This document shows, one piece after another, positions 1-57,171 of a stretch of DNA of 64,000 bases. The position numbers were made by a program, and so were the translations under genes. The notes under the pieces are model-generated. The model worked only from the letters and a program-made list of their open reading frames with translations. It did not search any database and had not been told where the DNA came from. Position 1 is the stretch's first letter. Each line of letters starts with the position of its first letter. Location: the IMG/VR virus record IMGVR_UViG_3300045988_074608; one strand, written 5' to 3'. The stretch comes from a virus.

Positions 1-2550
1 ATTCATTTTATATATCTCGTCGATAACCATTCTAACAACAGGACTTTTTGCATCAGAAAATAAACCACAAATACGTTCAAAAGAATTCGTATCTCCAAAA
101 TCATATTGTGCAGATACCCATTTTTTAATATTTACAGTTAATCGTTTTTTCATGTCATCCGTAAGCTCTGAAGATTCTTGAGATTCAATCTTCTCTTTAA
201 TCCAAAAATCAAGCATGTGTTCTTGTGCAACACGTTTCATATTTTGAATATATGTAAGCTTTTTTCGTAAATCTAAATCTGAAATAAGACGGCTTATCTC
301 GTCTATAACAGGATTAGAACCAGGTTGTATTACAACCAGCATTCTTTCAATATTAGACAACAGATTATCATAGAAACCGCAAATATCTTTTGTTATATAT
401 TGAATCTCGTCAAAAGAAAAAGGCTGAGTTTGTTTAGTATTAGTAGCTGTAGCGGCAGTAATAGAATTACCATTTGTATCCTAATAAACTCTATTACCAA
501 AATTATCAATATTATAATAAACCATATCATAGTTATTATCTTTAGCATTGATAAGCATTGCTAATATATTATTGATATCTGTATCAGCACGCTCTACAAA
601 CTATAGTACACCTTCTGCAAAAGCAGTCATAACTTCATCAGCACTCTTAGATTCAATTGCTTCAGCTATGGTCTAATGTTGCATCTAAACTTCACGAACA
701 GCGTTCTGATTAAATGCAATCTGTTTTTCATCACCATATATAGAAGATGTCTCTGAGAATTTAGATTTGTATGATTTATCTTTACTTAACGTTGAATTTT
801 CTATACTTTCAAACAAATCCTATATTGTACGTTCTTCTTTAGTTCTGATTTTATTTATTGAAAATCTCTAATCTTTTGCAGCTCGTATCTTTCTTCTAGC
901 CTCTTTAAATCTATCTATATAAGATTGTTTATTAAACCATAACCTGTTAAATTGCCAATTATTGTCTATATTTTCTCCAAGTTCTAAACCAACTTGTTTA
1001 CTATATGAAGCCTATACAAAAATATCTACAAGTTCTTTATATGCTGTGTTGTCATATTGTATACCGATACTTTGTAAGTATCTACTTATGAGTCTAGATA
1101 TAAAACTCTTAATCTTATCCAACCATGTTTGTTTAGTATCATACTGAACCTGTTTTAATTTGTTTATAAATTCATCGTTACTAAGTTCAGCAACCATTTC
1201 ATAAACATTTTGTAAACCTTGTATAGATGGATCATTATTAAATTGTTCTTTGAGTTTAGATAGTAATTTTTCAGCTTTTGCGCGTAATATTTTAGATCTT
1301 TGCAACGCTTCAACAGTAATTACATGAATCATTTCATGGGTTAATGTCTACACTAATGCATTTTTAAAATTATTCTCATTACCGAATGATTTTGCGACAT
1401 TTATAATAATAGTTCTTGTATTAGAATCATATTTAGCAGAATAATTACCAGTACGATCAGCAACTCGTCTAATATTGACACTATTGAACAAACCTGGACT
1501 TGTTTTATTAATGTCTTTTAATATTGAGAGGATAAATGAGAAATTATGATTATCCTCACCTCTTGTTTGTTTTATAATGTATTGTAGAAGATCTTGGGCA
1601 GTGTTTAAAGATTTCTTATTTAAAAACCGATTTAAATTACCCATTGATTCATATTCTTTAGTTTTAATCTAAACTTCAAGTCTTGGATCTTTTTTACCAA
1701 TACGTACTCCTGCATATTTAACTCTTAATCCAGGATCCATATTTTCTATATACTATCTCCAAATATCTTCTTTAACTTTAGCCTTTAATGTAACTTCGAA
1801 TCTTGTTTCATATGTATCATGTACGAGATTATCTATTGCATATCCTTGGTCTTTAATGTACTTTACAGCACGTTCTCTACTATATAGATGACTATCTCTA
1901 TCTTCACCATGTCTTTTGTATATATTATCGTTTATTCTAGAGAATGTTCCTACATTGTCTGTAGCAGATTTAATTTGATTAGGATTAATAGTCAATAATT
2001 CATAATACCCAAAAGTCTTATGATAAACCATACCCCCATCATATTCTTTTGGAAGTTTATCATATTTATTTCCAGTTCCATAATCTGTTATATAAGCCCT
2101 TTCTTCTAAAGAAGGAGAATCTTTTCTAAATAGATTTTTTATATTAAGAAATAACGATATTTTATCATTAGATGTACCAAAATATGGGTTTTCTAGATAA
2201 TTCTATTCTTGAGTTTGTTTTTCAGATCTAAATAATATAGGTTCTCCATTTTCATCAAATACATCTTTATACTATTCTTGTATTTCAAATCCATCTTGAA
2301 ACCATTTACCGTATGTATCTGTGAAATCAGATGTGAAAAGCTGAGCTTTTTTCTACTCAGCTTTATTTACATCTCCTTTATAATACTCTAATAAATCATT
2401 ATAGAGTTTTGATGATTTTCCTTCTTTTGTTTTATCAAGAGTATAACCATTGTTACAACACAGAACAGCATAGGCTCTTTTATAAGAGCCTAATACTTCT
2501 GTTAAGTGATTTAATTCTTCTTCGTATTTACTTTTTATTAAACATACCAT
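1..2550 (-). CDS. Large virion-module protein, C-terminal part cut by the window edge (at least 850 codons, TAG read as sense)
   Basis: ATG at 2550 lies 6 nt downstream of the tandem TAA TAA (2557-2562) that ends the giant ORF. Track ORFs 2353..2550, 1753..2031, 1348..1644 and 1012..1332 share this frame. Every gap codon I checked down to position 1 is sense or TAG, never TAA or TGA. No family recognised. Confidence 0.7.
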
Positions 2551-2559
2551 AATAATTTA

Positions 2560-5500
2560 TTATTTACATTGTTCATCTATTTCATCTGCTAATGTATCAA
2601 GAGCTTCGTTTGTAGGATAATCTTTTAAAGATTTCTCAATAAATTCCTATCTAGCTTCCAGATTCTATTTCAACTATTCAACAGTAATACCAACAGATTC
2701 TGCTAACTTAGTAAGTACAGACTAATCATTAAATAATTTAAGCTAATTTTCATCTATAATGTGTTTTTCGCCATATAATGCTTTATTTATAGTACTTCCT
2801 ATTTCAGCATTACCGTCCTCCGTGGTCATCTTATACAAGAATTCCCCTAAATTATAACATTCGAATACGTTTGCAAAATCCTAGTTCTAACTATCTTTCT
2901 ACATGATAGCTGGTATTTTTTTCAAAAGATTAATTACGTTAAATACCGCTTTACTTTTAACAACCATTGATTTTTTAGACTTATCATAATATATTACATT
3001 TTTATCTATATCTTCATAAGACAAACCTTCATAATCATGAACAGCTTCTTTAAAATCATTTATTATTTCGGAAATAAACCCTTGCTTGAAATCAGAATAC
3101 TTGATATATTGAGTGGTTTTGTCAGAATCTTCGCCTAATACATCCTCAGTCACAAATGAACTAATATTCTACATTATTATTTTTAGATCTTTTACAGAGA
3201 CTCCTTTTATAGGTTTGCTATTATAGTAATAATACTTTTTATTTACAGATTTCTATTCTGTTTTCTATAATCCAGAATCTGTAAACCTGTTTTTCTTCAG
3301 TGTTCCATCTTCATTATAATAATTTAACATTTTATCACCATTATGGTGAGCATAACAATATACACAAGAAGATGCACAATTACTATTATATTTTAACAAA
3401 TCGGTTTTTCCACCATAACAAGAACACAACTATCTAAATCTATTATTCTCGGTTAGTTTATTAGGTATTTGTGTACCAAGCATTTTATTAATAGCATCTA
3501 CACTTAAACAACCTTCTATACTTATACCATCCATTCTACAAGGTTCTGCGCATGTTGACAAGTCTAAATTATATTTTTTAGCAATATTTAACATCTTTTC
3601 AGCTATACCTTTTATAACATCCATTCTGGCATGAGTAAAATAAAATCCGGAATCATTCTTATCGAAGTATTTAGAATAATCATATCCTAATTCTTCCATA
3701 AATTTAGAAGTGGTTTTATAATAATCTAACACTGAAAATCTTACATGTTTTACACCTAATTCACTAGCTCGTTTCATCAATTTATCCACTTCAGATATTT
3801 TAGTAACGCCTGGTATAATAGGATCTATTCGTAATGTAACATATTCTGGATCTAATCCTTGTTTTATAAAGTCACCTATTCTCTCAATCATGTCTTGCCA
3901 TTTCATAACACCAGGCTCCCATTTAGTATTGCCTAAAGTAGTAACGCTGAAATGAATTATTTTAGGTTTGTTTATCTATAACAATTCTCTCATTGGTAAA
4001 CCATCGTGTTTTGTTATCAAATATAATGCGTCTATATCCTCATATCGAATAGGGTTCTTACTATAATCTAAAAATGTATGATTTCCTTTAGCCCAATCTT
4101 GTATCATTTTTGAGAAGAATACTGGATCAGTGTGTTCTGACGCAACTGCAATTCTTGGTCTAGTATCATCTCCAGTAAACGGTTTTATAGCAAGTATTTC
4201 ATCATTAGTTAATATTGTCTTATCGGAATTCAACGTTTTAACTTGTTCCAAATAAGTTCCGAATCTATCCTCATCATTCGCATCTATACTATCCTGCGTA
4301 TCTATACTGTTATCTGGTTCAATAACATAACCTTCTTTTTCCTATAATCTAGTTCTTATTTTGGTTAATATATTTGCGAATCGTGATTCTCCTGTAGGTT
4401 CACCTTTTTCCATAATTTCATCAAGGATTTCTCCTTTTCGATTAATATGTGTGAATTTTACATTTCCTGTATTAATTAACAATTGTTTAGCTTCTTCATT
4501 TTCTACAAATGACTAATACATGAGAGCAGACAATATACTGTTACTAACTTTTCTCCAGATATTTAACCCTTCGCCAAGATTAACACTAGCACCTTTAGCT
4601 TTTGCTATTTTAGGATCTTGTTCTGTTATTATAGAATTAAATATTCTAATCTTATCATCAGTTGACAATGCAGTAGAATATAAAACCTTAATAGCCTAGA
4701 ATGCATTTTCAACAGTATTCGCGGAATGTTTTACAATAGATTTAATCTTATCAATATCTTTAATATATGATAATTCCTCTCCAGACAATACATTAAATAC
4801 ATCTGTTATATGACGTGTTGCAAAGTTAGACAACATTAGATTATCACCACGTTCATAATGTATATTTATAGAATCTTGTTTCTTATAAAGACCTTCGATG
4901 GCAGTTATAAATGCATTTGGAACTTTATTGTTATTAATCAGATCATCTTTTGTTATAAATCCAGACTGTCGTATTGCGTTTTCAATAGATCCTCTCTGTT
5001 TATTTACATAATCTATTACACTTTGTAATTGTGTATCAAATGTCTATTGAGCAGATTGTACAGTTGGAACAATTTTATTACCCTGCTTATCAAATTTGTC
5101 AAAATACGTCTTATCGTAATCGTCATCTATTTCACATGAATAGAATTGATATGTCTAAGAACCTATTTTCATACGTAAACCTTTTGGATTTACAATTTTA
5201 TATATAGGGTATTCGAGACTAGTTCCATATTGTGATATTGATCCGACTCCAACTAATTTATATAATAAAAATCTATCGTTATCTGCATATGTTGTACCAT
5301 TTCTAAATGTTTTTATAAACGGTGGGAATTGTCCATTTTTATTTTTAGATATAGGTGAAGAATATTTATTATTGTAATATGATAATCCTATTATTGTCCT
5401 AGGTTCTGTTCTTAATGTAACAGTACCATCATATCCTACCTATTTATATGTAAAATTAGATGTTATAAATCTACTATAACCTTTTTCAGTCTTTGTATTA

Positions 5501-8500
5501 GTAGTCGGTATTATATTATTATCTGATGCAAAGTTTAATAACAACTCGTCTATGTTTATGCTATAATCTCTATTGGATTCAAGATTACCTTTATAATAAT
5601 CAGAAGCTTCTTTTATATATTTACAATATCCAAAATCTTTTCTCCACTGTAATGGTACATATTTAAAGAACTTAACAAATCCTTTACTGTCTGCAGAAGA
5701 CATAAATGCATATATTGCCAAATCATTTGCAATACCTCGCATAGCTTCTTGTAGTTTAGGATTCTTATCGTTTGTATAATTAAGCATATCTTTCCAAGCT
5801 TCTATATAATCATTACTTACAGCTGAATCATCTTCTGAAGTATATGTCATAGAAATTATATCATAATGAGGTTTACCTTCTTCTGCAAAATAATGTACAG
5901 AATGTAGTTTTTCGATAAGTGGATTTATTATAGTTCCATTTTGAGTAAACTGTTTTAACTAACCAGACTCATCTGATCGTAACAATCTCTATAACATTGT
6001 TATACGTTTAGCTAACGTACGATTGCCAACAATTAGTTGCTTCCAATACGAATATATCGTATGATTTGTACCGTGTTTTTTGTTATATTTATCAACATAA
6101 TCCTAAAAAGCATAATTAAACGCTTTCTATTTTATGTAACACATCATCGCATTATTAACTGCTGTTCTAGTAGCTTTAGATTTATTATTCAATATACTTA
6201 AAATCTCATCTCGTTGTTGTTCAAATGATTTTTGCATATGAATCATCTAATCTCCCAAAACCATATGTATGAATTCTGTACCATAATAAGTTTTATCGTC
6301 AATATAAGAATCATTTAACATCTATTCAATATTACTATTAAATAATGTACTCTATTTAAGATTATTATATTTCGCTAAATACTACTGCTAATCTTGATAA
6401 TTTATACCTTGTTTCTTAGTATCAATTTTAGTATATTGTACAAGATCTGACAGACCCTGTGCATATTTCTCAAACTCTTTCGAAGCGATGTATATCATTT
6501 GTTGGATTTCAGATACTTTTATATTTTTATCGCGAATCTTAATAGTTTTATCTAAATCTAAACTTGAAACAGAATTTCCAGCTTTCTTATAATAATTTCT
6601 ATCCGTTGCGAGTATTTGTAAAATAGTCTTTTTTACTGTTTTACCATTTTCATTAACTTCTACTCTAAAACCATCATTGCGCATAGGGTCTCCAAATATA
6701 TCTACAATAGTAGACATTACATCATGTGCAAGCTAATCTTTATCAGATAGAGAACCATTTGCATATATTGCAGCAATACTTTTTGTACCAAAAGTCTTAT
6801 TTATATATTTTTTTTCAGCCTCTTCTTTTCTCTATTGTGGAGATAAACCTGGATTATCAACTATCTAACCATCGCATTCATTATAAATCTATGCTAAATC
6901 TCTAATCACAGGATTATTTAAGAAATAAAATGCATGTCTACCAAAACCTAATCTTATTAACAATGAACTTATATTATAAGTAGCTTTATTGATATTCATT
7001 CTCAAAACATAAGGATCTTTAGCAACATCTACGTGACCATTGATAAGTGCTGATATCCAAGATAATATAAATGATCCATCACAGTCAACACTTCTTGCTA
7101 AAGATAAAGCTCCTAAATTACTTAATATTCCACCATCTGATATAAATCCAACATCATATAATTGTGTCAAGATATGGTTATTATTGTTCAAAGCGTAAGG
7201 TCCGATACCAGTTTTACCTGTTGCGAAAGAACCTCTTGTTTCTACCTAAGTACTAAGCATTTCAAATTGATATGGTTCGTATGGTTTTGCAACAACTCCA
7301 CTCTCAAGTTCTTTCAATACATTTTTAACAAGAGATGTATCCTAGTCAATAGATCTTCTTAAAAGATGTGCATATCTTCCACCTTGTAATTCACCATTTT
7401 TATCAAGTGTTCCACAATCCTTTAATAGTGATATATATGTACGTAAAAGATCATTAGTTAACTATTTCTTCTTATCGGAAAGATTTTCAGAAGTTGCTGT
7501 ATAACGGGATTTTCTTCTAATCTGACCTTCTTTATCAATAAAATCAACATCGTGTTTTACAAGTTCGTAGAATAATGTAGACATGTATAATTTATCAATA
7601 TCGAAGTCAGAACCTGTTTGAGCTGTAAATTCTTTAGGTAAGACAATAGTATCTCTAACAATAGGTAATACATCTACAAATCGTAAAGCTCCAATTGAAG
7701 ATGTAGCCTGTGTAGGAATACGATATGACATAGTATTGGCTTCAGCATTATGCCACTCAGTTTCTCCAGTTTTTACACCAGATATTATATCATTATCGAT
7801 CAGCCATTGTTTAGCCTTTTTAAAGTTATTCTACAATCCTTTTGGAATGATATCCATAAAATAGTCTATAGATACTACAGCATCCATTGAACCTTCTTCA
7901 TTGATCATACGTAAAGGTTTTCCACCGTTCAGTTTACTTTCAATATTTTCAGAACTAATAACCTTATACGGACTATCCATTCCAAAAACAGTTCTCTGAT
8001 AAAATGCATTACCTTTAGTACGAATATCGATGACATCAGTTCCTACTTTAGATGACAATATACTTTCAACCCAAGCCATATTTGAAACGCTGTTCAAATC
8101 TACATTAAAACCATCTCCGGCTTCATTTAATTCTAAAGCTTCTAATATATTTTCATCAGCATTTCTATCTCGTAACTACTGTACTAAAAATTGTTGTAGA
8201 TTTTTAAAGTTTACAGTACCGTCCTAGTTTGTAAATTTATTTTTCAGTTCATCCCAACTAAGTTTAGCAATCTCACGCATCGTGGACATTATCTTATCAC
8301 GAACCTCGTTTGCGGACATTTCTTTTACTGTACCATCTGATTGACGTATATTATAAGTATCACCATCACGTAATGTACCCATACAAACCTTTAAAACCTG
8401 TGTACCTGCAGCCATTATTTCATCTACACGTGGATCTGTGTTCAACTGTCTACGAATCCATTTATATTTCTATGTATAAATATGACCTGCGAAAGAAAAT

Positions 8501-11500
8501 TTATTTATATCTTCAGCAGACATGTCTGGGTCAAACCTCTAAGCTCCTTGAGAGCCTGCTTTTACAGCAGACTACATCATACACATATCAACTCCATTTT
8601 TAGGATCGTTCATCTTATCATAAAGATGTTTTAAGAATCCGTATGATATACCTTTGAATATTGGGAACAATGCAAACTTATTATAAAAATGGACAGGTGT
8701 TCCATTTTGCATTCTATAACCAAAAGCAGAATATTTCTAAGTAGATATAAGAGCATTGTGTACAATTTCATAAGCTTTTGCATCTGATAAATAACTATTA
8801 TTTTTACCACGTAATATATCAAAAGCCTCTTTAACATTTTCTGTAAATGCACCGCGTTGTTTCAACAAGTTTTCAGCCATCTTGTCGGTTATGAAAGCAG
8901 TACCATCAGTAACATTAACACCTTCCAAATGTTTAGAATCATCGTATACATAACTATTTGTTTCGGATTGAACTTTCTTATCGATGATTTCCAAAATACC
9001 AGCTTCTTTTAACAACTCTTTCTGTTTTTCAACATCCATGTTGTTTACAATCTTGTATATTTCAGCTTTTTCAGCTTTGGATATATCTCGACCTTCGTAT
9101 TCTTGTTTACTTAATAGTATGTTAACACAAGCTTCTCTATATTCACCTCTTTGGAATACTGTTTTTAAAGAATTTACCATTTCACTGGTAATCTACCAGT
9201 CATTTATTTCCGCAATTCTATATTCACTAGGTATTCCAGGTATATCTTCTCTATTGTTAGATCCAGTAGAACCAACACCTCCATAACGTTTAGTTTCATC
9301 AACACCAAATGTTACAAGCTATCCTTTATCATTGTAATTAGTCTTGAAGAATTGTGGCATTCCTGTTACAAATCTTCTACCCTCTTCCATAGACATTAAC
9401 TGTTTGCACATTGTGTCAAATACATAAGCTACTATAGCCTAACCTTCTATTTCTGCTTCACTCTTTAATGAATTATAACGCCTCTCTGTATTACCTATTC
9501 TAGAATTTCTATATGCGTTGGCAATAAGTGCTATTTTATTAACATCTAAGTAGTTATTTTTGTAGTTGAAATATTTAGCATTTTCAGCAGCACTTGACGT
9601 ATTTGTCTATACTTCTATAATACCAAGATCTACAAGATGTTTTAACTCGTCGTCTAATCTATGTCTCAATATATCAGCCACTATTTTTCGTTTTTCCTCA
9701 ATAGGTCGACTAAAATATTTTTCAACTGCTTTATTATAAGATTCGAGTATTCCGTTAGTTGGTGTACGATGTTTTTTTGCATCATCTGTAGATACATCAT
9801 CTTGAAAATTGAATGATATGAAATTATCACCTTCATAAATACCTGCCAATGATGTAAACCTTGCTCCGTTTTTACTACCTGTATGATAGTTTTTAATCAT
9901 TTGTTCGGCAGGAAGTTTATCTTGCTCGCCATTTGGACCATAACCTAATTCACGAATAGTTTTCTCAACATTCCTACGTTCGCATTCGAAATACTCTATA
10001 AATTGATCTAATACATCGTTTTGTTGATATCCTTTGCTTAAATCCTCTAAGTTAAAGAATATCTAACCTGTAAAATGATTAAACATAGGCAGTTTTCCAA
10101 ATGCTGATATCTAATCATCAGTCATTTGACTACTTACTTTAATATTATAGTCAAATCCTGGTAATTTAAATCCTCGTACAGACATGTATGTAGATTTATC
10201 AGACAATGTTGGCATTATTATAAGACCATCAGATAGTTTCTACATTCTTGATATTTGATCTTCACGTTTTCCCATTTCTGAGAATTTAACGCTATCCGAA
10301 CTATACTTAGATCCAGCATCGGTATCAATAGATATTTCGTCTTTTACTTCTTTATTTAATAACTGCTTAGCTATAACAGATCCTCTTTTCTAACCGTCTT
10401 CATCTTCAAATACAACATACTCGACATCTTTCATATCATCCAAAATAGAACCTTTTCTAATCGAACCATCTGATTCAAAAGAAGTGTTCAAATCATCTAC
10501 AACATCTGATACTGTATTGTTTTGAGCATACATATACATTTTAGTATTTCCAGCACCCAATGTCATCATTTCTGATGTTGCCATTTTATATTCAGATGTT
10601 GCTTCTGCAAGCATTGTTATAAATTGATTTTTAGCATATAAGAACGCTCCTGAATATTTACCGTCTTTATTAGAATCTCTTGTAAATACATTTAAATCAC
10701 CTGATTTTACAGCATTATTTAATTTGTCAAGAACTCCGTCTTTTGATATAAGTGCATATATACTAACACCTCCACTTTTACTACTTGTCATCATTTCACG
10801 TAATGATTCTATATAATCAGTACTGTCTGGATTTAATTTGTGCAGTAAATGATAAAATGCAGGTTTTGTAATCATTACACCTATAGAATTAAATGCGTTA
10901 ATTATATTACTAACAATGAAATCAAAATTAGCAACATCATTTATATCATATATTTTACCATTTATATCAATCTTAGTACTATCTCCAATTAAACCTTTTC
11001 TTATTTGATTCAATGTTGTAGCACAATCTGCAAATGTCGTATAATTTCTGTTTATATTGTCATCTTTATTATATAATCCGGTCAAACCAGACCTTACATA
11101 ATCAAACCATGCGATTGGATATTGTCTAGAACTCTAATTAGTATTTGTCTATCTATATCTATATTCGTATCCTTTTTTATTACCTTCTGATTCATTTATA
11201 AACAAGAAGTTAAAGTTAAGTTTTTGTGATTTAATACTCTAAAACAATAACGTAGTAAGTGTCTAATTGTTCTGATTCTATGCGTAAGTAGCACCTTGTA
11301 ATATATCACCTGCTTTACATATAACTTTTCCGTTTTTACCAACAAGGTCTTTAACAAGACGTACTTCAGTAGGATACATAGCTTGTTCACTTCTATCTTC
11401 TGTATTACTTATATAATACTCTGGTTTTACAATAGCTCCATGATAATATACTTTTGGAAAACCTGCATATTTTTCATATTGTTTTTCTGTAAAACGTAGA

Positions 11501-14500
11501 TAAGATTGATAACGTAATCTATACAAAGATTGGGCTATTCTTTCGAACATGTAATCGTTTTCTCCAAGTCTCCTTAATTGATTATATAAATCAGATACAT
11601 TTTTAACATCGTGTAATTCTGATAACAATCTCTGATGTACTGATTTGAAAGATAAAAATACAGGTCTACCCATAGAGTTTACTGTCTAAGGTATTGTTGC
11701 ACGTTTTGGCTTACCATTTTCTTTGACAACTTTTCCATCTTTATCTAAAACGTACATACTTTTAACTACACCAGATGCTACATCTTCTTGTGTTACATAT
11801 CTAAGATTAGGTATAGTACTCAACATCCATTGTATAGGAGCTGCAACATCATCAGACATAGAATGAGAATAGAATTCGTCTGCGTGTCCTTGAATATCAT
11901 CAGAAACAGCACTTGTTATATCACTATCAAGATCTTCTTTTCTTTGCGCGTCTCTGTCTTTTCTTTTGCGAATACCCATCTATTGCAATTTAGATTCCAA
12001 TAATGGTTGAGCTATCTACCAATTCTAGAATAATTCACGTATAATTAATGCATTATCTCGTGTCAATGCAGGTAATTTACCATCTTGTACAAGTTTATCA
12101 AGTTGTTCTTTTGTAGCAGAACCTCCTGTAATCTAAACATACCATTTAGCAAATGGTGAATCTTTTGCTAAAAGTGTCTATCTATCAAATTTAAGCTTTT
12201 CTATATTATTACCGAGAATATCAATACCTTGTTTTTGAACAATTACTGGTAATAATGTTTCAACAACTTCATTTAATTGTTTCTAAGTATATATGTATTG
12301 TAATTGATGATCTTTACCTTCATTGTCCTATATTGTCATGTTAAGACCTTTTGGGAACAATCTGTTAAAACGTTCCATATTTTCTTTCGAAGCTTTACGA
12401 GAAGAGAATTTACCGTGATCTATTGCTCTAAACGTACATGCCATCTTAAGATTACGTGTTCTTATAAAAGCGTTCAATGTATTATACAACCAAGCAAACA
12501 TTCTTAATATTTTATTTTTAGGTTGCCAGTTGTATTTAGAATATGCATAGAACATATCAGCAAGACCTTCAGCAATCTACTCTTCTGATAAATCTTTATT
12601 TTTACGCTTTTTCTTATACCAATTATAAAGAACGTTTCTTTCTTCTTCACTCATTAACATTTCAACAACGTAGTGAAATGATTCATGATATTGTGCATTA
12701 TTTTCAGCTTCGTACGATAATTTAATAGCGGCACTCATACAACGTCCAACAACATCACCATGCTATGTTTTTTCTATAATATCTTTTACTGGAAGTATTT
12801 TAACACTGTCTCCGCATATTCTACGCACATCTTCTGTCGCTTTTTTCAGCCCTTCTTCATCTTTTATAGGATGTTTAGCTTTTTCACGTTGTACCATATT
12901 CCAACCGTCATCACCAAACATATCATCTTGAGCAGATAACATATCATCAATAGATACATCTTGACCATCTATGTCATCTAATACAGTTTCATCAGATTGA
13001 GGTGTTTCAGGTTGCGTGTTTATCCAATCATCGATTGCAGTTTGCATTTGGGCAGATTGTTCTATAATTGCACTAGGTGTTGTATCATCTACAGAAATAG
13101 CTTCAAAATCAGATGTACTTACCAAAGCATCGGTTATTCCAGAATATTCTGACTAGAACCAATTATTTTTAATCATCCACGCAATACCACTTATGTTATT
13201 TTCAACATCGTCTCTTGTTATTACGAATTCATCTGAATATCTGATAGATTGTACATTTGGGTTTTTATCAAACCATTCTTTAACACCATTAAACAATCTA
13301 CTAACCTTTGAATTTTTAAAGTTATCACGTATTAATAATGTATTCTGCACATTCAAATATCCATTTGTTGACAATTCCTGACGAAGTTTTTGCAAATCCT
13401 GATCATTTTTAAGATTATATATTGTTTTAGTGTTACCTCCATCGTAACTCATATATACTTTATTACGATCAAGATTACCATCTTCATCTTTTACATAATC
13501 AAATTGGAATTTACTGTCTGTTGCGACAGCTCCACCTCCGAATCTTATAAGATAATGTAACAATTTAGAATTATCTATAGGACCTTGTATTTGATTGCCA
13601 TCTTGGTCAATTACATTAGCTTTTGATTGTTTCTTTCCTGATATATTTGTTAGAATATCAACAATAAGATCTGCTGCAGATTGTGACATTTTACCAGGTG
13701 TCAATGCTATTAATGCTGTATGAGGTACAGCACCCTGTTCAGAATCTTCAGCGTAATCCAATGGTTTCTGAATATATACAATACCTGGTCTTGACAAATT
13801 CTCATCATTTACAGCTTCTCGTTGAGATGTTCCAGATCCAACCTTATAATCATCACTATCTAATCGTCTTAAAGTACCCTATGAATCCGATATCAATAAC
13901 ATTGGTTCCCCGTTTTTATAATCTAACAAACCATTTATCTAATCGTCTGTTAAATCCAAACGTTCTTTTACATTGCCAGGTTTATTATTATACTGATATT
14001 TACCATTTGTCCTACTAAGTCCTTTTAATACAACTTTTATTTTTCCAGATTTTATATCATCTTTATTCTTTTGATAAAAATCTATAAGTTTATTTCTAAA
14101 ATCTTGTTCAACTGCGTATATAAAAGATATTTCTGCAGTAGCTTCTTTTGAAAGAATTTGTCCATTATATGATATTTCTTTAAATTTCAAATATGCACCA
14201 CATGTAGCAGCAGTATCTGAAAATTTTGAAGCTTCAAAATCTATTACAAATTGTACATTTTTAATAAAATCTTTTTTAGTAGTCCAATCTTTAAATACTT
14301 GTAATGCTTTCCTTTGTGCAGGAGTTATTTGACTTCTATCTTTAGCAAGTCTGTTATAATGTTTTACATATTTATTATTATATACTCTAGGATTTGGATG
14401 AAATTTACCTTGACCAGGACCATTACCTTTGTTAGTTTTATCTGCTAAATGTTGTTCTACAATTGTTTTAAATCTTGTCAAAATATTTTTTTCTCCTTCT

Positions 14501-20394: not shown

Positions 20395-20396
20395 AA

Positions 20397-44650: not shown

Positions 44651-46450
44651 TTAGGCTGCTACGTTATAAGCACCTTTATTCGTAATGTCTGTATCCTCAG
44701 CATCACAGTACAGAATACCACAAGACAGCGGATTACGAAGCATAATACCCTCCTCACCGAGGAAGTGAACCTGGTAACCATCACGGCTGTTAGAACGTAC
44801 TGTATTAATACTATTGCTATATCCAGCTGGAGTTACAGAACCTGCTGTACACCACTGTACAAACTCACGACCCTTACGACAAACCTTAACAACGTTTGCC
44901 TGACCATCACGCTGACCAAGATCAACAAACAAGAATGTGTATGACATCAATGGTTTACCTGTAACCGGATGCAACTGACGGAACATTTCCATATTATCAA
45001 ACAGAGCACAACGCTTAACTGTAAGCTCAATACCGTTAGTCATCTTATATGTAGTAAACTGACCACCGAGTGTCAACTCCTGACCAGAACCAGTGATAAA
45101 CTTAGTATCAGTAAGCTGGAATCCAGCTGCCTTCTCACGAAGTACACGGTCAAATTCTCTAATCATTTATGTTTAGTTCATATCGTTAATACAAACCGGT
45201 TTTTATTGACCAAATAAAAACCCTCATATTTTCATATGAGATCAGACTATATCTTCAACCTATAAAAAGGTTGTCCACCATTTCGATTTCACTTGAAACC
45301 TACTCCTTTCGGATAGTCGTTGAACGTTCTTAACTAAATAAGTTAAGCTTCGCTGCTGATTGCCTCCAACTTAATGGTAAGGTTTTCCAGCAATTAGATG
45401 GATTTTCAAGTAACATTACTGCTACAGGGAGCTATGTTGTTAACCCATTTCTCCTGTCAAAGCGATAAACTTACGCTCCTGTGTACCGAGAATATTATAA
45501 CACAGATCGAACAGATAATCCTCAAGCAGCTCAGCTGTCAAATGTGTATAATAACGTACATTAGCAGGACTAATCTGCTCAAACAAACCTGCAGAGATTG
45601 GCACAGGTCTTCCATTTTTACCTCTAAGAGCATATGTACCATCAGCATTACGGTTAGAACGAGAGAACAGAAGGAACTTCTCCTCACGACGTTTCCACTC
45701 ACGAAGAGCCAACCAATACTGATAATCAGACCACAAATAAGAAGTCTTACCTGTCTCAGGATCCTTCAATGCGATAGCAAGTACTGTAGAATAAGCATCA
45801 CCTGTAATATCGTAAGAAAGACGAAGAGTTGTAAGGTTATTACGCATCTTAAATGGAGTCTGATAGCTGATGATATCTGCCTCATCACTGTACTCCTCGT
45901 ATGCAGAACCAATACGGCTTACCTGACGACCAGGAAGAAGGAACTCACCAGGAATATATGCTCCTGCGAAACCATCTGCTACATAGCATTCATATACCCA
46001 TGTAGAACCATCCTGATAAGGTACACCATTTACACGTACCTGATAGTTTACATTATCGAAAGCAAGTACAGCACCAGGACCGAAAGCTTTTTCCTCAAGT
46101 CCAATGTAGATAGGAGCTCCATTCAAACCTGGAGTAACAGTATTCGCATTGTTAGAAGTAATCTCTGCACCATCAGCCTTAGCCCAACGAATATTTACAG
46201 CCTTCTCCTGGTCAACCATTACTGACCACTCGTACTCACGATTCTCAATAGTCATAGTCTTACCGAGACCACCAGTAATCATGTCGATAGCAGTAGATAC
46301 ACCATCATCCTTAGTACCAAATACCAAAGAAAGAAGACCACTAATCTCATGAGGTCTTGTAAGAAGTGCGTTTGAAATCATGTTCTCATCAACCAAATCA
46401 GAGAATTTACGACCTCTGTAAAGCTGAAGATTATTTAAAAGTGTATTCAT
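44651..46450 (-). CDS. Major capsid protein, two exons (46450..45443 and 45163..44651) joined across a group I intron; 506 aa, no TAG
   Basis: Track ORFs 45440..46450 and 44651..45166 are in the same frame and are separated by 279 nt of ribozyme-like sequence. The predicted junction is ...LTGEMG/IREFDRV... It is a GC-enriched gene placed after the scaffold-like gene, as in crAss-like head modules. Confidence 0.75.
45164..45442 (-). mobile_element. Group I intron (IA2, T4 td-like), ORF-less, 279 nt
   Basis: The canonical P, Q, R and S elements occur in order on the minus strand: AATTGCTGGAAAACC, CAATCAGCAGC, GTTCAACGACTATCC, GAAGATATAGTCTGATC. The 5' exon ends in GGU, followed by UAA. The intron ends in ...AACAUAAAUG. 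Several stretches (AACGACUAUCC...GGAGUAGG...CAAGUGA...UCGAAA...GACAAC...AGAUAUAGUCUG) match my recollection of the T4 td intron. Confidence 0.85.
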
Positions 46451-50786: not shown

Positions 50787-53267
50787 TTATTTTTCTCCTG
50801 TTACTTTATTCTTTAATGCCGTTCTTGCTTTCAATTGCTCACGCTCCATTGCAGCATCATCTTTCTATTTTTGTAACTTTGATTCATGCTACATTTGCTC
50901 TTTAGCAAGTTTTATTTTCTGATCCTCTATATCACGTTTCTGTTTAATCTCGTAATCTTTTGTATATTGATCAGCACGAATCTTCATCTCGGCTGTCGCA
51001 TTTTTTGCGATTTCCATAGGATCTGGAATATTATTCATATTAGCATCCTTATTTTCTGTACCACGGTATGCACTAATTTCAGCTACTGCAATTTTAGTAG
51101 CATTATCTTGATCAATCTGATAACGTGTAAGATCCATCTGAGCTTCTTGAAGCATGAGTTCTTGCTCTTTAGCTTGATTCTGCATTTCTTGAATCTTCTG
51201 TTCTTGTTCTGCTTGAGCTTGTTGCTGCTGCTGTGCTTGTTGTTCTTGACGAGTCTGCATATCTTTGAGCTTCTATTTAATGATATTAAAGTTATCATTT
51301 GTAAGAATCTCTGCTGCTTCTAACAACGATGCACCATTTTGCATAGCTGGTTGTATAAGTTGTTGTAATTTCTATATGTTTTCAAGATCTTTAGATGTAT
51401 CTGATACAAACACATCCATATCTTCATAATAGAATTTCTGTGTCACATTCAAAAAGGCACGTTCTCCATTATCAAATATATATTGTAACTTATCTTTACC
51501 TGTAGCTTGCCATGCACCTTTTGCTGTATTTAACAACATATTCAATACATGTCTTTTAACCTAAGCATGTACCCAGAATAAAGGTTCTGTAATATGTGAA
51601 GATTGTGTAACACTGCGTTCTACATTACCTACAAGTTCTGATGTACTTATTGCACCCTAACGCTGTTCTGTAATACCTGATATAGTTCCGGCAAGTTGTT
51701 CTATCTTATCCATAAGCTGTATATATTCAGCTATTACATTTGACATTGTAAGATCAAGAGCTGTTATCTGATTAAACTGCGCAGGTTTACCACCTTCACG
51801 ACCTGGGACATTCCATTGTGTATCATATGGGTTTATAAAATTAACACCAACACTTGACAAATAATGCATCCATTTATCAACTGTAATACCCATAGATTTA
51901 GGTATCTGTGTAACGTCCATATTTACAACCTTACCTTTATCTCTAGCTATTGCAAGTTCTAGTCTATACCATAATACAATATACATATATTGCAAAGGTT
52001 TAAGAATACTTACAAGAGATCTCGGTCTACTATTTGTATTACTATATACAGCACCACAATAAGGTAGTTTCTAACTATTAGGATTATCAATACTTACATG
52101 TTGGTACTCAATAGGTTGTATACCAAAATATAAATCATTACTGCATCTATAACCCTCCCAAACTTCGATAACCCAATCTGGTTCTATAGATATTTCATTT
52201 CCTGTAGGTTGATATGTTTCATCAACAATGTCTACCTACATCTAACCCTATTCGTCTTGTGTTGTCACATAGTTTATTTTCTTAAAAGATTTCCAACAAC
52301 AGTGCCATACGTTTACATTATGATTACCTTTTTCATCATATATAGGATTATCATAAAAATGTAACTAAATACCTCTGAAATCATCACGAATACCGTGTTC
52401 TCCTAGATTATTTGCAGGTACAGCGTTTATTAACTCTTCAAGCTTAATAAGATCTTTTTCTGTAAACTTATCATAATATCTATCATAAACCTCTGTAATA
52501 GGTAAACGCATTCTTCTACAACACCATGCTCCATCTTCTATAAATTCCAAATCAGGACTTTTATCATAAGAAAAATACATAGGGTTCACTCTTTCCATAT
52601 AAGGCTCTGAATTTAAAACACCAACATAATATACTTCCTAGCCGCTAATGAGTGCATCTTTCCAGCCTTTGATAAACTCGTTATCGATGCCTAATTTTTC
52701 ACGCAAATATGTAAGTGTATGATATGCAGTGTTTTCTACAACATCCTTATAATCTTTGTCCATGTATTTAGCAATCTATTCTGGAGGCATTATCTCTCCA
52801 TTTTGAAGCTGCTCCTAAAACTATTGCTATTCTTCAGGACCCATTTGTGCCATTACTGCAGCTTGCATGTATTGCATTAATAGCTATTTCTAAGTTTCCA
52901 TTAATTCGGAAGTAGCTTCTTGTGATGTACGAACTACTCTAAAATTCAATGGTCTCTTAGTTTCCTCTCCGATTAGAAGATCTATTTTTGGTCTAATGAT
53001 ATTAAAATCCTAAGGTGTTGCAGGAAAACCTTCTTCTACCTTAAACGGATTAGTTATTTTCTTAAAATCTTTTTCATCGAAGATACTGTTATACAGATTA
53101 TAATAAGTCTGTATCTCTCCATGTGCAGTATGCGTCTATCCCCCTGAAACGATATTGCCTTCGCCAATAATATAATTTACGCAATCATGCTGCCATTTCT
53201 CATTTTTCTTCGATAGCGGTAATTTCTGCTAAGGGAATCTCGAATTATATAAATTATCTTCTACCAT
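50787..53267 (-). CDS. Portal protein (826 aa), Gln/Glu-rich C-terminal tail
   Basis: The ATG at 53267 lies 3 nt after the TerL TAA. Track ORFs 52365..52598, 51657..51995 and 50889..51260 share the frame, and the gaps I checked contain TAG only. The stop is TAA at 50787-50789. The position after TerL and the size fit a crAss-like portal. Confidence 0.7.
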
Positions 53268-53270
53268 TTG

Positions 53271-56200
53271 TTAAAAATTAAATATTGACGAATCTTCTTC
53301 CTAAGGACCGTCGTCCCACCATTGACTACTAAACAATGGTTTTTCAAAGAGTTCGACTTGTTTATTCTGTTCTTTAGCACTAGATACTTTTACTTGATAT
53401 AATTCTTCTCTATAAATCATAACCATGCATAGTGCTATAACACGGTCTACATTACGAACCTAATCATCCATTATTAATTCTTCTATTAAAGGTTCGCTAA
53501 ATATTCTTTCTATATTTGGATGTCCTGGTTCATATTCTTCCATCATCCATTCTAGTATTAAACCTTCGCCATATGCTCTTATTTGTTTTGTCATATGACA
53601 ACCTTTTCTACGCTATACTGTAGAGTTTTTAAACAATTCACTAATTACTTTATCAGGCTAATCAGCTAATAAGTAATCGCAATGTTTATTTGTAAAATAT
53701 GGGTATATACCTTTACGTTCGTTCTCAAATAATAACCTAGCGTTATAAAATAATAACAACTTACGAACGTTTTCATAATACTCTTCTGCTGTATCTGGTC
53801 TACCAGAATATTCGGCTACTATTACATCTGTCCAAGCTTCTCCTGCTTGTACACGTTTAAATATAAATGTAGACCCTAATGAATTTGTAAAAGATTCATC
53901 ATGGTCATAAGGGTCACATCCTCCTATATATAATCCAAACGGAGGATCCTTTACTGGGTACTCCCATATAACAACTGATCCTGCAGGTTTCTAATCTTTC
54001 TTTAGTGGATAATTAGTAATATCTCCAGTTTTCTTTTCTATTGCTATAACTCCACCGTCACCATCCCATTGCAAATCAACTATGTGTTTCATACTCTATA
54101 ATTTTTTATTAGTACGAATTCTTGTAAGTTGATCCATTAATAGTTTGCGCGGAAATATGTTTTTACCAAGCTCTAATATAGCTTCTTGTGGTTTTATCGG
54201 ACGTTCTGATATAAATCTATCTATGGATTGCTAACTAGCACCACCATCTTTAATAATGTTACGTTGTTTTATAAGTTCCTCAATTGTTTTTTCACGAAGA
54301 CTGTTTCCATCTTCATCCATATAGATATATTTACCATCATCGTCAAACGATTCAAGATTACTCCATGCAGGTACGAAAAAACCACATTCTGTTTGTTCTG
54401 CATTATCATCCCATATATTTGGAAATGATAGAACATTATAAGCTTTTGGTTTATAAAATAATGCTTTCAAACCATCGAACGACGCACCTTCTGTTCCGCC
54501 TGTGTTATGTGTAACAATACCGTTGCATATATAGTTATGTTGTTCGTCTGCTGTAAGATTATATATATCTTGTTCACCAATATCTTCAATATTTACAATT
54601 TTTTCAGCATGTACCCCAAGTACGTATTTATGATATTGAGCAACATGTTCTTGTGTGTATAACATCATCAAATCTAATGCTGATTGTTTATATGTAACAG
54701 CACACGATATACATTTTGCGAAATTTCCAATACTTGTTATATCATTAATTGTCAATCTCCAGTGTCCTGGTCCATCTTTTATAACTTTACCATTAGAAAC
54801 GTGCTTTCGATATTTAGTTTTAATAAAGCGTATGCTACAATGAACACCGAAATGTATCAACACTTCCTCAATCTATCGTAATAATGGTTCCTAACACTAT
54901 GTTAATGTTATACGAGGTTTTCCGGATTTATCAATTTGTATATATCCGTCGGTGTCAAACAAACCACCTATTAATTCCGCTAAAGATTCTTGATCATATT
55001 GATGTATATTTACTGGTAATCGTTTCTTATCTTTTACCTGACCATAAATACCGAGTTCTCGTAATTTTGGACAAATTCCTTTTATGCGAGTTTCTTTATA
55101 AATTTTACCATCTTTAGTAATACGAACTGGTCTATCTAACGAAGTATTAAAATGTGTTTCTATGTATTCATTTATTTCGTTATCACAATTTGACAACCTT
55201 GGCGTTTTATCAAAACCATAACTACCATCGCCAATTAACCAACCAACAACTCTAGGTTCCCACATTTTTTTAGTTCCAAAGAACGGAATGTTGTCGATAA
55301 CGCCGACCTATTCACCAATTTTACATTTCGAAGCTTCATGCCACTTCCATTGTTTCATTGTTTGATTTTCTTTACGTTTTCCAGGAACTCTTTTTGTCAA
55401 ACCGGCATGTGACCATAAAATCGGGTGGTCCGTACTACATTCTAATATTCTTCCAGTGTTTGTGGTTATTCTAACACATGGTTTTTTAGCCGGTGGATTG
55501 AAATGTGATATATGTTGCTAAACAGCCTAATAAGTATCCCAACCTAAAATACCATCCTCTTTATGTAAATCTTCAATATTAACACAATTTCCAGAAGAAG
55601 TCCATACTTTTGTACCTTTACATACACATCCAAAGGATATCATCAATCCAAATGCAACACCATCATCCGTTTCTACAGCAGGTTGTTCAACACGCCAAGC
55701 ATCTAATAAACTTGGGAATTTACCACTTTCTTCCCACAATACTAATCTACCACGAGTACCACGAATACGTTCAGGATCGTTTTTCAATGTAATACCTGTA
55801 ATACTTGATAGATAACCCTATTCTGTCTATTTACCAAATTCGTCAGTAACTTTGTAACCAGATACTCGTTCCATTCTTGTAGATGTCAAACGTTGTTTTG
55901 CCCATGCTGTATTCTTATCTATAAAATCCATGATCTGCCATGCTTTTGTAAGCAATCCATCTCCGATTAAGAATTTTTGTTCTGATGCAACTGCAAAATT
56001 TTTAGAACCTGGTATGAGTTCGTAATTACGAACTAACATTGAAGCACCTTTAAAGCTATATCCACGTTGTCTACATTTTAACACTGCCATGTGTTTACCG
56101 ACTGTTTCTGCTTCTTCTACAGCATTAAAATAATAATAATCATAATCCCAAAATTTAGGGAAGTCAAATATACGCTCTCTTCTTTTTCTTGTATCACCAT

Positions 56201-56453
56201 TTCTATCAACATATTCTGTTTCTATTAATCGCATAATTGGACAATAGTTTAAATAAAAATAATGATAACCTGTAATCTAATCTCCATCTGGAGCAGTATA
56301 CCCATTTAAACATCTATCTGTTTCTCGCTCCCAATATTTAACATAATCTGTAGTACCTCTGGGAGCTAAGGTATAACATTTATGCACTTTAAAGAATTCT
56401 GCAGCTTCACAGAATTTTTTTGTGTTTTTTATATGCTAATTAAAATCAACCAT
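53271..56453 (-). CDS. terL: Terminase large subunit precursor (1,060 aa; about 685 aa after intein removal)
   Basis: The ATG at 56453 overlaps the upstream TAA (TAATG). Track ORFs 55827..56234, 55527..55787, 54897..55265 and 54231..54863 share the frame. I translated from 54231 to 53271 by hand and found TAG only, ending at TAA 53271-53273. The nuclease motif is GLYIGGCDPYDHDES. Confidence 0.85.
54504..55628 (-). mobile_element. Intein (375 aa) with a LAGLIDADG homing endonuclease domain, inserted in TerL
   Basis: The N-terminal splice junction is ISFG/CVCKGTKVWTSSG, a Cys-1 block A-like sequence. The C-terminal junction is NGIVTHN/TGGTEG, an HN followed by Thr+1. The two LAGLIDADG motifs are VVGWLIGDGSYG and ELIGGLFDTDGYI. 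Its length is divisible by 3. It contains six in-frame TAG codons (55527, 55518, 55308, 54897, 54891, 54873). Confidence 0.85.
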
Positions 56454-56650
56454 TACAAATCCAATTTATTTTCGTTGGAAATTATTATTCTGTCTCCGTC
56501 ATCATTTGTAAACAAATAATGATACATTTCGTCATGCAATACAACATTTTCTTCTCCCACTTTTGTTATATTTCCAACTGTTTTCCAATCTGCAGAAAGT
56601 GACAATTCTTTATATTTATTGTCATTTTTTCCTTTTATACTTACATTCAT
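56453..56650 (-). CDS. Small protein upstream of TerL (65 aa)
   Basis: Intact track ORF whose TAA overlaps the TerL ATG. Confidence 0.5.
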   Translation of the reverse strand: MNVSIKGKNDNKYKELSLSADWKTVGNITKVGEENVVLHDEMYHYLFTNDDGDRIIISNENKLDL

Positions 56651-56652
56651 AA

Positions 56653-57171
56653 TTATTTAGGACTTTCATAAAGACCTATAATACCACCACCTTTTACACG
56701 ACCAGTTTCAGCTTGTTCAGCCTTCGCTTGTTTCATAGCGAGATCTAAGGATTTAATAATACCGCTTATGTCTTTCAACAGTTTCGATACTTTAGTAGCA
56801 GTGTCTATATCAAGGTCTTCTTGTGAATAATCGTTCATTACATTCATTATCGCCTCAGCAGCATGTTTTGAAGACGTTAACAATCGTGTCATAGGTGTTT
56901 CTTGAAACTCGTTGAAACGTTTAGCTAATTCTTTAATTTCAGCTGTTGGTTCATAATGTTCATCTTTAAAAACATCTTTTGCAACTCTCCAAGTTCTTTC
57001 TTTTTCTGGATAAGCCTCATAAGGTGTATTCCATTTATAACGCCATATTATAAATTCTATTTCTTTTAAAGCCTATGCTTTATCTTTAGCCTTATTATAA
57101 TAATCTTTAAATGGAGGTATTGCAAGTTCGTCTGTTTTTAATATAATTTTATTTCCTTGTATATCAAACAT
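56653..57171 (-). CDS. Hypothetical protein (172 aa); first gene downstream of the tRNA that contains an in-frame TAG
   Basis: The ATG at 57171 is in frame with track ORF 56653..56892. There is a single TAG at 57073-57075. The stop is TAA at 56653-56655. Confidence 0.55.

Follow-up and report, generated by a model that had tools for sequence, protein, structure and literature searches.

A crAss-like phage with TAG-to-Gln recoding in its late genes and an intron in the anticodon of its putative suppressor tRNA

Introduction

Crass-like phages of the delta group read TAG as Gln in their late genes and carry introns in the major capsid protein (MCP) gene and inteins in the large terminase (TerL) (PMC7886860). 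Lysis genes are recoded preferentially (bioRxiv 10.1101/2021.08.26.457843), and mass spectrometry of two crAss-like phages has identified Gln at TAG positions (PMC9523058). Surveys also report recoded phages that have no detectable suppressor tRNA (PMC7886860, PMC12386605). The tRNA introns of Lak megaphages have been termed "enigmatic", and none was reported in suppressor tRNAs (bioRxiv 10.1101/356790).

Two bacterial systems provide a reference for the tRNA gene described below. The amber suppressor supE (glnV) of E. coli, a tRNA-Gln whose anticodon is CUA, places Gln at UAG. Group I introns are found in the anticodon loops of bacterial tRNAs, as in cyanobacterial tRNA-Leu(UAA), tRNA-fMet, and proteobacterial tRNA-Ile and tRNA-Arg.

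Here we analyze a 64,000-nucleotide stretch of viral DNA (IMG/VR record IMGVR_UViG_3300045988_074608), referred to as the window. We put at roughly 90% the probability that it derives from a gut crAss-like phage whose late genes are translated in code 15 through its own Gln-type CUA suppressor, the gene of which is split by an intron.

Results

The window and its relatives

Comparison of its proteins places the window within Crassvirales, Suoliviridae/Oafivirinae ("delta" group). Both MCP exons match Pfam Crass_capsid (E=5e-141 and 9e-62), and the amino acid identity of TerL, portal and MCP to Oafivirinae RefSeq genomes is 75-85%. The window is 100% identical to an ENA contig and represents about two thirds of a phage genome of ~96 kb, with ~32 kb lying outside. 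The gene order is that of cr272_1 (NC_055903), cr273_1 (NC_055904) and cr130_1 (NC_055901), whose annotated CDSs already contain in-frame TAG and in which a tRNA labelled tRNA-Gln, anticodon CTA, lies beside the dUTPase. In contrast to the window, these relatives have no intron in the suppressor tRNA, no intein in TerL and no intron in MCP, and they are poorer in TAG (e.g. 4 in the portal versus 21). The coordinates of the features discussed are collected in Table 1.

Table 1. Features of the window (positions from its first nucleotide).
Feature	Position	Strand	Remarks
Late module (packaging, virion, lysis)	1..57171	-	33 genes, 27 with in-frame TAG, 281 TAGs
Giant virion-associated protein	2560..20394	-	5944 aa, 96 in-frame TAGs
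Membrane-anchored spanin-like lysis protein	31334-31993	-	9 TAGs, 64% of Gln positions
Holin	31947-32459	-	Pfam Phage_holin_4_1
GH24 endolysin	32461..32892	-	5 TAGs, half of Gln positions
MCP	44651..46450	-	exon 1 46450-45443, exon 2 45163-44651, no TAG
MCP group I intron	45442-45164	-	Rfam group I model, 108 bits
Portal protein	50787..53267	-	826 aa, 21 TAGs
TerL	53271..56453	-	1060 aa, 17 TAGs
TerL LAGLIDADG intein	54504..55628	-	375 aa, TerL aa 276-650, 6 TAGs of its own
tRNA-like element	57807..57880	-	abuts suppressor tRNA; ARAGORN call Ile(AAU)
Suppressor tRNA 3' exon	57881..57920	-	A36 through encoded CCA
tRNA intron	57921..58907	-	987 nt, between U35 and A36
HNH ORF in tRNA intron	57975-58877	-	no TAG
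Suppressor tRNA 5' exon	58908..58942	-	ends ...GAAGG-CU-CU, after anticodon U35
Small conserved gene	59399..59632	-	upstream of tRNA; codon 25 (59558-59560) is an in-frame TAG

TAG is a sense codon in the late genes

TAG is read as sense in the late genes. With this reading, 33 minus-strand genes tile 98.1% of positions 1-57171. Their 18,714 codons include 281 in-frame TAGs and not a single in-frame TAA or TGA, whereas TAA and TGA together account for 4.9% and 12.3% of codons in the other two frames of the same genes. When only TAA and TGA were used as stops, the minus strand yielded an ORF of 5957 codons (2560-20433) with 96 TAGs, followed by ORFs of 1714, 1064, 827 and 782 codons; no ORF exceeds 510 aa when the standard code is applied. 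Taking TGA or TAA as sense instead of TAG did not give a comparable ORF tiling. The 38 complete minus-strand genes of the window end in TAA (28) or TGA (10), none in TAG.

These results agree with the main points of an earlier sequence-only reading, which held that the minus-strand late genes continue through TAG and that every delimited gene terminates in TAA or TGA; the ATGA or TAATG junctions it listed (56453, 43141/43138, 42356/42353, 39590/39587 and 32892/32889) were all found. Its statement that TerL, portal and endolysin reach full length only by read-through is borne out by the Pfam and RefSeq matches. The endolysin match to Pfam Phage_lysozyme spans 2-125 of 125 positions, and portal and TerL are 75-81% identical to RefSeq relatives over their full length. 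The segment absent from TerL of the sister phage L023 is exactly the intein, and the giant virion-associated protein has homologues in cr272_1 gp23 and cr130_1 gp79.

The use of TAG is uneven. It occupies 29% of the Gln positions of the late module and is richest in lysis genes and some tail genes, and the most abundant structural proteins avoid it. The proposal that TAG is sense throughout 1-57171 is right for the module as a whole, but 6 late ORFs, both MCP exons among them, have no TAG. The proposed range was also too short. In the gene at 59399-59632 the TAG is opposite E or D in relatives, so recoding reaches beyond 57171, to at least 59558. Apart from this gene, the early and replication genes in the 57.2-64 kb part of the window and in a sister contig (L149) have no in-frame TAG. 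The exception sits on the upstream side of the tRNA, which blurs the early/late boundary.

Could TAG be a true stop after all, with the module made up of fragmented pseudogenes, assembly errors or leaky read-through products? The standard-code record of a relative, Dulem virus 42 (PP511876), does have portal, terminase and MCP in pieces. However, in-frame homology to relatives runs on across every TAG, and the codon alignments place no TAA or TGA of a relative opposite a window TAG site. Independent assemblies of several ENA and Logan samples contain the identical sequence, and the matches listed from public data (8,000 scored hits) include over 100 portals that are full length and nearly identical. 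A stop at TAG, to which we assign practically no probability, is refuted by the frame-specific absence of TAA/TGA and by the conservation across TAG sites.

TAG corresponds to glutamine

Which amino acid does TAG specify? A first set of codon alignments compared 160 window TAG sites with cr272_1, cr273_1 and cr130_1. In 316 codon pairs the partners were Q in 78, TAG in 31, T in 30 and E in 28, and the log-likelihood was -753.7 for Q, as compared with -908.3 for E, -918.4 for N and -925.9 for K. A second, independent set of six more distant Suoliviridae gave Q in 41, E in 24 and TAG in 21 of 191 codon pairs, with a log-likelihood of -434.2 for Gln versus -520.1 for Glu. In this tabulation by residue, which the sequence-only reading had suggested, Gln is the best-fitting residue in both sets and leads the next-best one by 155 and 86 log-likelihood units over nine relatives in total. 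The commonest partner codons are CAA and CAG, the latter a single transition from TAG, and in the reverse direction TAGs of the relatives pair mostly with TAG, CAA and CAG in the window. These comparisons indicate that TAG encodes Gln in the late genes of the window, as had been proposed.

The two protein-level arguments first offered for Gln fared less well. Lysozymes had been said to carry E or Q at the endolysin TAG sites, but in five solved GH24 lysozymes these sites are occupied by D/A, N/H/F, T/A/L, A/K/N/S/G and E/A, with Q at none. The TAG at the Q of a QxxxY nuclease motif (14926-14928) is indeed in frame; the protein found no support as a nuclease in Pfam and PDB comparisons, and a search for a counterpart of its gene in the relatives found none. 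The endolysin sites might be taken to favor some other amino acid (e.g. Glu, Lys, Tyr, Trp, Leu or pyrrolysine), as might the E, K or T opposite many TAG sites in relatives and the label "Pyl" that ARAGORN gives to CUA tRNAs by default. We regard this as very improbable, since the substitution profile of TAG fits Gln codons and those of no other residue, the suppressor tRNA resembles a phage tRNA-Gln(UUG), and Gln was identified by mass spectrometry in related phages (PMC9523058).

A CUA suppressor tRNA gene in two pieces

The putative suppressor tRNA gene (57881-58942) heads a long array of leftward genes, a short way upstream of the dUTPase and TerL. Joining its exons produces the anticodon loop CU-CUA-AC and a tRNA identical at 73/73 bases to the intron-less tRNA(CUA) of a 97%-identical sister phage, which upholds the earlier claim that the window encodes a CUA tRNA. 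Default tRNA finders miss the gene on account of the mobile intron in its anticodon. Several traits are those of a tRNA-Gln. The variable loop and T arm (24 nt) are identical to those of cr130_1 tRNA-Gln(UUG), suggesting a tRNA-Gln-related body; U35 is present; and the acceptor end has U1·U72, a mismatched 1:72 pair, with U1 shared by all Suoliviridae CUA tRNAs examined. The discriminator is A73 as opposed to the E. coli-type G73, a rule that may not be that of the Bacteroidales host, and a CUA anticodon dictates A36 in place of the G36 of E. coli tRNA-Gln. The tRNA body alone, judged against a biased comparison set, fails to separate Gln from Val or Ile.

Like E. coli supE, the gene pairs a CUA anticodon with what appears to be a tRNA-Gln body. 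Unlike supE, which is chromosomal and of low efficiency, it is phage-encoded and would be obligatory for hundreds of codons.

The tRNA-like element next to the 3' exon has a G3:U70 pair and no U33. It gave no Rfam match and is absent from sister phages.

The intron belongs to a structured family

Compared with the intron-less allele, the exon-intron junction, ...CUCU|UUUG...ACUG|AAC, allows no sliding at either boundary and is thus unambiguous. The last base of the 5' exon is U and that of the intron is G, as they are in four further tRNA hosts (five independent hosts in total); at least four other IMG/VR phage contigs have CUA tRNAs interrupted at this position by related introns. A group-I-type core (P2-P8) occupies the 3' end of the intron, and the HNH ORF extends into it. 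Core helices P3-P8 pair in 98.5% of cells over 75 family members, as compared with 34-48% in slid controls; compensatory changes occur in 20/30 core pairs, the core includes a P3/P7 pseudoknot, and none of 500 shuffles matched the observed values. By these covariation data the intron is of group I type with a structured core. It resembles the bacterial tRNA group I introns in its insertion in the anticodon loop, the U before the 5' splice site, the terminal G, the structured core and the P3/P7 pseudoknot. It differs from them in its host gene, an amber-suppressor tRNA of a recoded phage, in the HNH ORF running into the ribozyme core, and in being invisible to Rfam RF00028, which returned nothing at E<=10 for the window intron and recognized 0/9 family members at the gathering score. 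The family of intron-split CUA tRNAs is likely real, and no description of it was found in the literature searched.

A split tRNA gene may also be a dead allele left by the insertion of a homing endonuclease, the function being supplied by another suppressor in the ~32 kb outside the window, which could hold an intact copy, or by the host. The failure of Rfam to see a group I signature is in keeping with such an allele, as is the outcome of a search for the P1 guide, in which five aligned introns showed no conserved complement of GGCUCU. Recoded phages without a detectable suppressor have, moreover, been reported in surveys (PMC7886860, PMC12386605). Yet both exons are intact and match a functional-looking intron-less allele base for base, the U/G rules and the core with its abundant compensatory changes are conserved, homologous introns occupy the same site in at least four other distinct CUA tRNAs, and loss of the suppressor would be intolerable with at least 281 essential TAG codons. 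Nor was a second CUA tRNA seen in 9 kb of a sister contig beyond the window. We consider a dead allele unlikely, and an intron-split suppressor that is functional after splicing remains our preferred reading.

Discussion

The TAG-to-Gln recoding seen here is real and already known, since RefSeq relatives are annotated with in-frame TAG and tRNA-Gln(CUA) and code 15 has been demonstrated by mass spectrometry in crAss-like phages; the sequence-only reading was right that it is not new. The window shares with the published code-15 delta-group phages (Yutin et al. 2021, PMC7886860; Borges et al. 2021/2022; Peters et al. 2022, PMC9523058) the in-frame TAGs in TerL, portal and giant virion protein, recoding mainly in late genes, a phage CUA suppressor, the MCP group I intron, the TAG-containing TerL intein, the strongest recoding in lysis genes and an MCP without TAG. 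The recoding itself shows no essential difference and in concept adds nothing to Yutin 2021, Borges 2022 and Peters 2022. What differs is the intron-split suppressor tRNA, as these papers describe no such split.

How might the two halves of the genome be translated in turn? Early genes, in which TAG serves neither as an internal codon nor as a terminator, would be readable by the unmodified host ribosome. The phage would then provide a CUA amber suppressor derived from tRNA-Gln. As this tRNA accumulates, a host enzyme (GlnRS) would presumably charge it with glutamine; UAG would be read as Gln, and the packaging, virion and lysis proteins would become translatable, amounting to a temporal switch from early to late expression. 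With an intron lodged between U35 and A36 of its gene, a functional suppressor needs RNA splicing first. The intron would presumably splice itself; a search for its P1 internal guide sequence found none. As the only suppressor seen is in two pieces, the late proteins would depend on ribozyme activity. That the code switch is gated by RNA splicing, and that the intron lineage homes to the suppressor anticodon CU|A in recoded phages, is a tentative proposal to which we give somewhat less than an even chance. We consider it much less likely than the existence of the intron family that splicing has a regulatory role and the intron is more than tolerated selfish DNA.

The window has to be translated with table 15, or TerL, portal, the giant virion protein and the lysis genes fall into fragments. 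The GenBank entry for Dulem virus 42, annotated with the standard code, is an example. Two side findings are of modest value: a widespread and well-structured group-I-type intron family is invisible to the Rfam model, and suppressors hidden by an anticodon intron bear on the repeated reports of recoded phages "without" a suppressor. If true, an anticodon-homing intron lineage could account for part of the "missing suppressor tRNAs" of recoded phages.

Codon usage and gene content of the late module

When only TAA and TGA are counted as stops, the minus strand of the window from 1 to about 57.2 kb consists of long ORFs almost without gaps. The largest has 5957 codons (2560-20433, with 96 TAGs), and the next-longest have 1714, 1064, 827 and 782 codons. 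When the standard code is applied, no ORF in the window exceeds 510 aa, and reading TGA or TAA as the sense codon instead of TAG did not recover the long ORFs. Cutting the ORFs back to the first ATG yielded 33 genes that account for 98.1% of 1-57171. These late genes hold 281 in-frame TAGs in 18,714 codons (15 per thousand) and no in-frame TAA or TGA; in their two other frames these stops together reach 4.9% and 12.3% of codons. All 38 complete minus-strand genes of the window terminate in TAA (28) or TGA (10), none in TAG, and every ATGA or TAATG overlap listed in the sequence-only reading was found. This pattern cannot be chance.

By megablast, the window groups with crAss-like phages of the Suoliviridae/Oafivirinae. 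The closest records are the RefSeq relatives cr272_1, cr273_1 and cr130_1 and Dulem virus 42 (PP511876), whose TerL-portal-MCP block (large terminase, portal, major capsid protein) matches at about 76% nucleotide identity. The ENA contig ERZ27229359 k115_191848 (96,440 bp) is 100% identical to the window across the 22.5 kb compared, and an IMG/VR contig of 95,113 bp, the sister phage (L023 and L149), is about 97% identical. Pfam confirmed a crAss capsid protein spread over two exons, a holin, a dUTPase, a LAGLIDADG intein within TerL and an HNH ORF, and it matched the GH24 lysozyme at full length only if TAG was read through. In the sister phage, a TAA/TGA-free ORF of 2992 codons (L149, 6146-15124, plus strand) holds the gene that leaves the left end of the window. 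The start of this ORF lies about 2.6 kb further upstream than the window's gene start predicts, so the boundary with the giant protein may differ between strains.

The reading of the window with code 15, in which TAG is Gln, is correct and needed for annotation, yet it is not new, as had already been recognized: the model is published, and the annotated CDSs of the RefSeq relatives contain in-frame TAG. Each of these relatives also has a gene annotated as tRNA-Gln with anticodon CTA adjoining the dUTPase. In the deposited record of Dulem virus 42 the genes were called with the standard code, which leaves the portal in 2 pieces, the terminase in 4 and the MCP in 3 plus two 'endonuclease' ORFs, a live case of the mis-annotation that TAG recoding warns of.

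Assignment of TAG to glutamine

All window proteins, with TAG masked as X, were compared by tblastn with the genomes of cr272_1, cr273_1 and cr130_1, and the subject codon opposite each window codon was read. The 160 aligned TAG sites gave 316 codon pairs, in which the top partners of window TAG were CAA (48), TAG (31), CAG (30), GAA (22) and AAA (18); TAA and TGA never occurred opposite these sites. In the reverse view, the relatives' TAG codons were most often opposite window TAG, CAA and CAG. When these alignments were also used to derive a substitution spectrum for each of the 20 sense amino acids, the TAG spectrum had its best log-likelihood for Gln (-753.7), followed by Glu (-908.3) and Asn (-918.4). 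A second, independent set was drawn from other Suoliviridae subfamilies (cr124_1, cr56_1, cr125_1, cr6_1, and cr55_1 and Azobacteroides phage ProJPt-Bp1, the aligned genes of the last two being without TAG). Here the partners were Q (41), E (24) and TAG (21; n=191), and the log-likelihood was -434.2 for Gln versus -520.1 for Glu. By this comparative evidence TAG encodes Gln; on this assignment, 29% of late-gene Gln positions are written as TAG.

Other sources were less informative. Endolysin TAG sites had been offered as evidence for Gln, which is weak: they are variable surface positions at which solved GH24 lysozyme structures show D, N, H, T, A and E, not Q. For a proposed QxxxY nuclease, reading the codon bore out the in-frame TAG at 14926-14928. 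The argument from the nuclease is weak, the segment being a motif string only (...PDLL...IDFK...QLNAY) with no match in Pfam or PDB searches and no homologue in cr272_1 or cr130_1. The 826-aa portal of the window phage is already in a public protein collection with Q at TAG sites, and a search of a large protein database returned only near-identical portals pre-translated in the same way, so the portal search gives no independent evidence.

The D arm of the suppressor tRNA and a 24-nt stretch of its variable loop and T arm recur in cr130_1 tRNA-Gln(UUG). The first base of the suppressor, U1, faces U72, and U1 with a weak or mismatched 1:72 pair was present in every Suoliviridae CUA tRNA examined. 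U1 with a weak 1:72 pair is a tRNA-Gln trait. Ranking the spliced tRNA against 147 phage tRNAs, a set biased by the collection method, left Gln (32) and Val (31) unseparated; since similarity of the tRNA body fails to split the two, it is the codon alignments that carry the residue assignment. Scanning IMG/VR with a D-arm pattern was discarded as an isotype test because the pattern is not isotype-specific; the scan surfaced the intron-less allele of L023.

The split suppressor tRNA and its intron

No CUA tRNA was found on the window by default ARAGORN or by Rfam, which detected no tRNA in either the whole window or 57800-58300. Once introns were permitted, ARAGORN reported a minus-strand tRNA in two parts at 57881-58942. 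Its Ser(UGA) label was rejected, as the junction was misplaced and reading of the exons gives CUA: the 5' exon ends in ...GAAGG-CUCU, the 3' exon starts with AAC-CCUUU, and the spliced anticodon loop is CU-CUA-AC. The joined exons are identical at 73/73 bases to the uninterrupted tRNA(CUA) of L023, which substantiates the spliced CUA anticodon claimed earlier. Neither exon/intron boundary can move relative to the L023 allele, thus placing the intron insertion between U35 and A36. IMG/VR holds four intron-less alleles of this tRNA and one that bears the intron.

Features of the window (all coordinates on the minus strand)
Feature	Position	Size	Remarks
TerL LAGLIDADG intein	54504-55628	375 aa	bounded by C...HN/T; 6 TAG codons
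Suppressor tRNA intron	58907 to 57921	987 nt	starts U, ends ...ACUG
HNH endonuclease ORF in tRNA intron	57975-58877	300 aa	no TAG
Structured core, 3' end of tRNA intron	57921-58067		large intron family, loci L029-L148
tRNA-like element	57807-57880	74 nt	ARAGORN Ile(AAU); abuts CCA end of suppressor tRNA
MCP group I intron	45164-45442		Rfam RF00028, 108 bits; between codons 337 and 338
Both MCP exons			no in-frame TAG
Late ORF	43820-44572		no in-frame TAG
Late ORF	40536-41582		no in-frame TAG
Late ORF	34494-34979		no in-frame TAG
Late ORF	34010-34507		no in-frame TAG
Late gene, highest TAG share	37684-38028		TAG share of Gln positions 0.8
Membrane-anchored lysis protein	31334-31993		TAG share of Gln positions 0.64
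TAG-rich late gene	38040-39590		TAG share of Gln positions 0.54
Endolysin			TAG share of Gln positions 0.5

The Rfam group I model did not match the intron in scans of the whole window and 57800-58300, and nine loci of the intron family were likewise negative. The 18-mer GCGCAAGCGAAAGCAGCG from the 3' part of the intron, flanked by regions that resemble group I R and S elements, is present in at least 120 IMG/VR contigs from very different phages, some with two core copies per contig (L051, L054, L117, L139). RNAalifold, run on 75 aligned non-redundant members, recovered P3, P4, P5, P6, P8 and P9. Once P7 was included as a pseudoknot, pairing across the core was seen in 98.5% of cells versus 34-48% with slid partners; compensatory changes were seen at 20/30 pairs, and the observed values were reached by 0/500 shuffles. 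The covariation of P3-P9 is strong, yet RF00028 misses the family at its gathering score. A P1 guide sequence was sought in the tRNA intron and not found; we therefore name the intron group-I-type and putatively self-splicing.

Homologous introns with the same HNH ORF (about 70% nucleotide identity) split other CUA tRNAs at the identical CU/A position. At least five different tRNA sequences, the window's included, carry such an intron; the other four lie in IMG/VR contigs in which both exons were read (L039, L068 of the group L068/L080/L099, L133 and L147). Judged from the 3' half alone, L066/L102, L104/L112 and L131 are probably further cases. In L034, L040, L070 and L089, the intron is followed by AACCC... 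and then by sequence that is not tRNA-like.

The tRNA-like element beside the suppressor gene has the alanine identity pair G3:U70 in its acceptor stem and an anticodon loop, GGAAUGA, without U33. It was missed by the Rfam tRNA model; the sister phages L023 and L133 lack it, and no exact copy turned up in IMG/VR. In the loci of cr56_1, cr125_1 and cr6_1 (L154, L155 and L156), an intact CUA tRNA is directly followed by a free-standing homing/HNH endonuclease gene unrelated to the window's HNH. Homing endonucleases seem to settle repeatedly at the suppressor-tRNA locus.

An intron and an intein also interrupt late genes. The MCP group I intron, of a kind already known for delta-group crAss-like phages, follows exon 1 ending in ...GGU and itself ends in ...AUG; the spliced MCP of 507 aa is collinear with that of cr272_1. 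The TerL intein is exactly the segment that L023 is missing, and is thus a presence/absence polymorphism.

Distribution of TAG among genes

TAG is entirely absent from the most abundant structural genes (MCP, 43820-44572, 40536-41582 and 34010-34979). For the MCP taken as a whole, having no TAG at all has a Poisson probability of 5e-4. All of its Gln codons (17/17; 44651-46450, minus strand) are CAG, whereas CAA is about three times as frequent as CAG in late genes overall, and the 44-46 kb stretch has a raised GC content of 39%. Together these features suggest selection for efficient, suppressor-independent translation. The TAG-rich lysis and tail genes of the window agree with the preferential recoding of such genes described by Borges et al.

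In-frame TAG is absent from the plus-strand early genes (60.6-64 kb), the HNH ORF, the dUTPase and the replication genes of L149, all of which end in TAA or TGA. One exception blurs the early/late boundary: 59399-59632, a conserved small gene upstream of the tRNA, has TAG at codon 25, opposite E or D in relatives. On the early strand just upstream of thyX, codon 75 of the plus-strand ORF 62519-62803 is its only TAG. Read as a stop, this codon would be the window's sole TAG terminator and would give a 74-aa protein; read through, it would give a 93-aa product overlapping thyX. The relatives offer no homologue of the ORF by which to choose between stop and sense.

The best-supported model for the window is the published recoding model. 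Early genes would be readable under both codes; the phage suppressor tRNA, charged with Gln, would then turn UAG into a sense codon and so make the late genes translatable. Recoding has been proved by mass spectrometry in two other crAss-like phages (PMC9523058). Recoded phages without a detectable suppressor have been noted (PMC7886860, PMC12386605). The 'enigmatic' tRNA introns of Lak megaphages are in other isotypes (bioRxiv 10.1101/356790). Our literature search found no paper on intron-split suppressor tRNAs, and a suppressor gene whose anticodon is split by a mobile group-I-type intron is the sole element absent from the literature searched. The intron makes splicing part of the code switch, and it conceals the tRNA from default tools.
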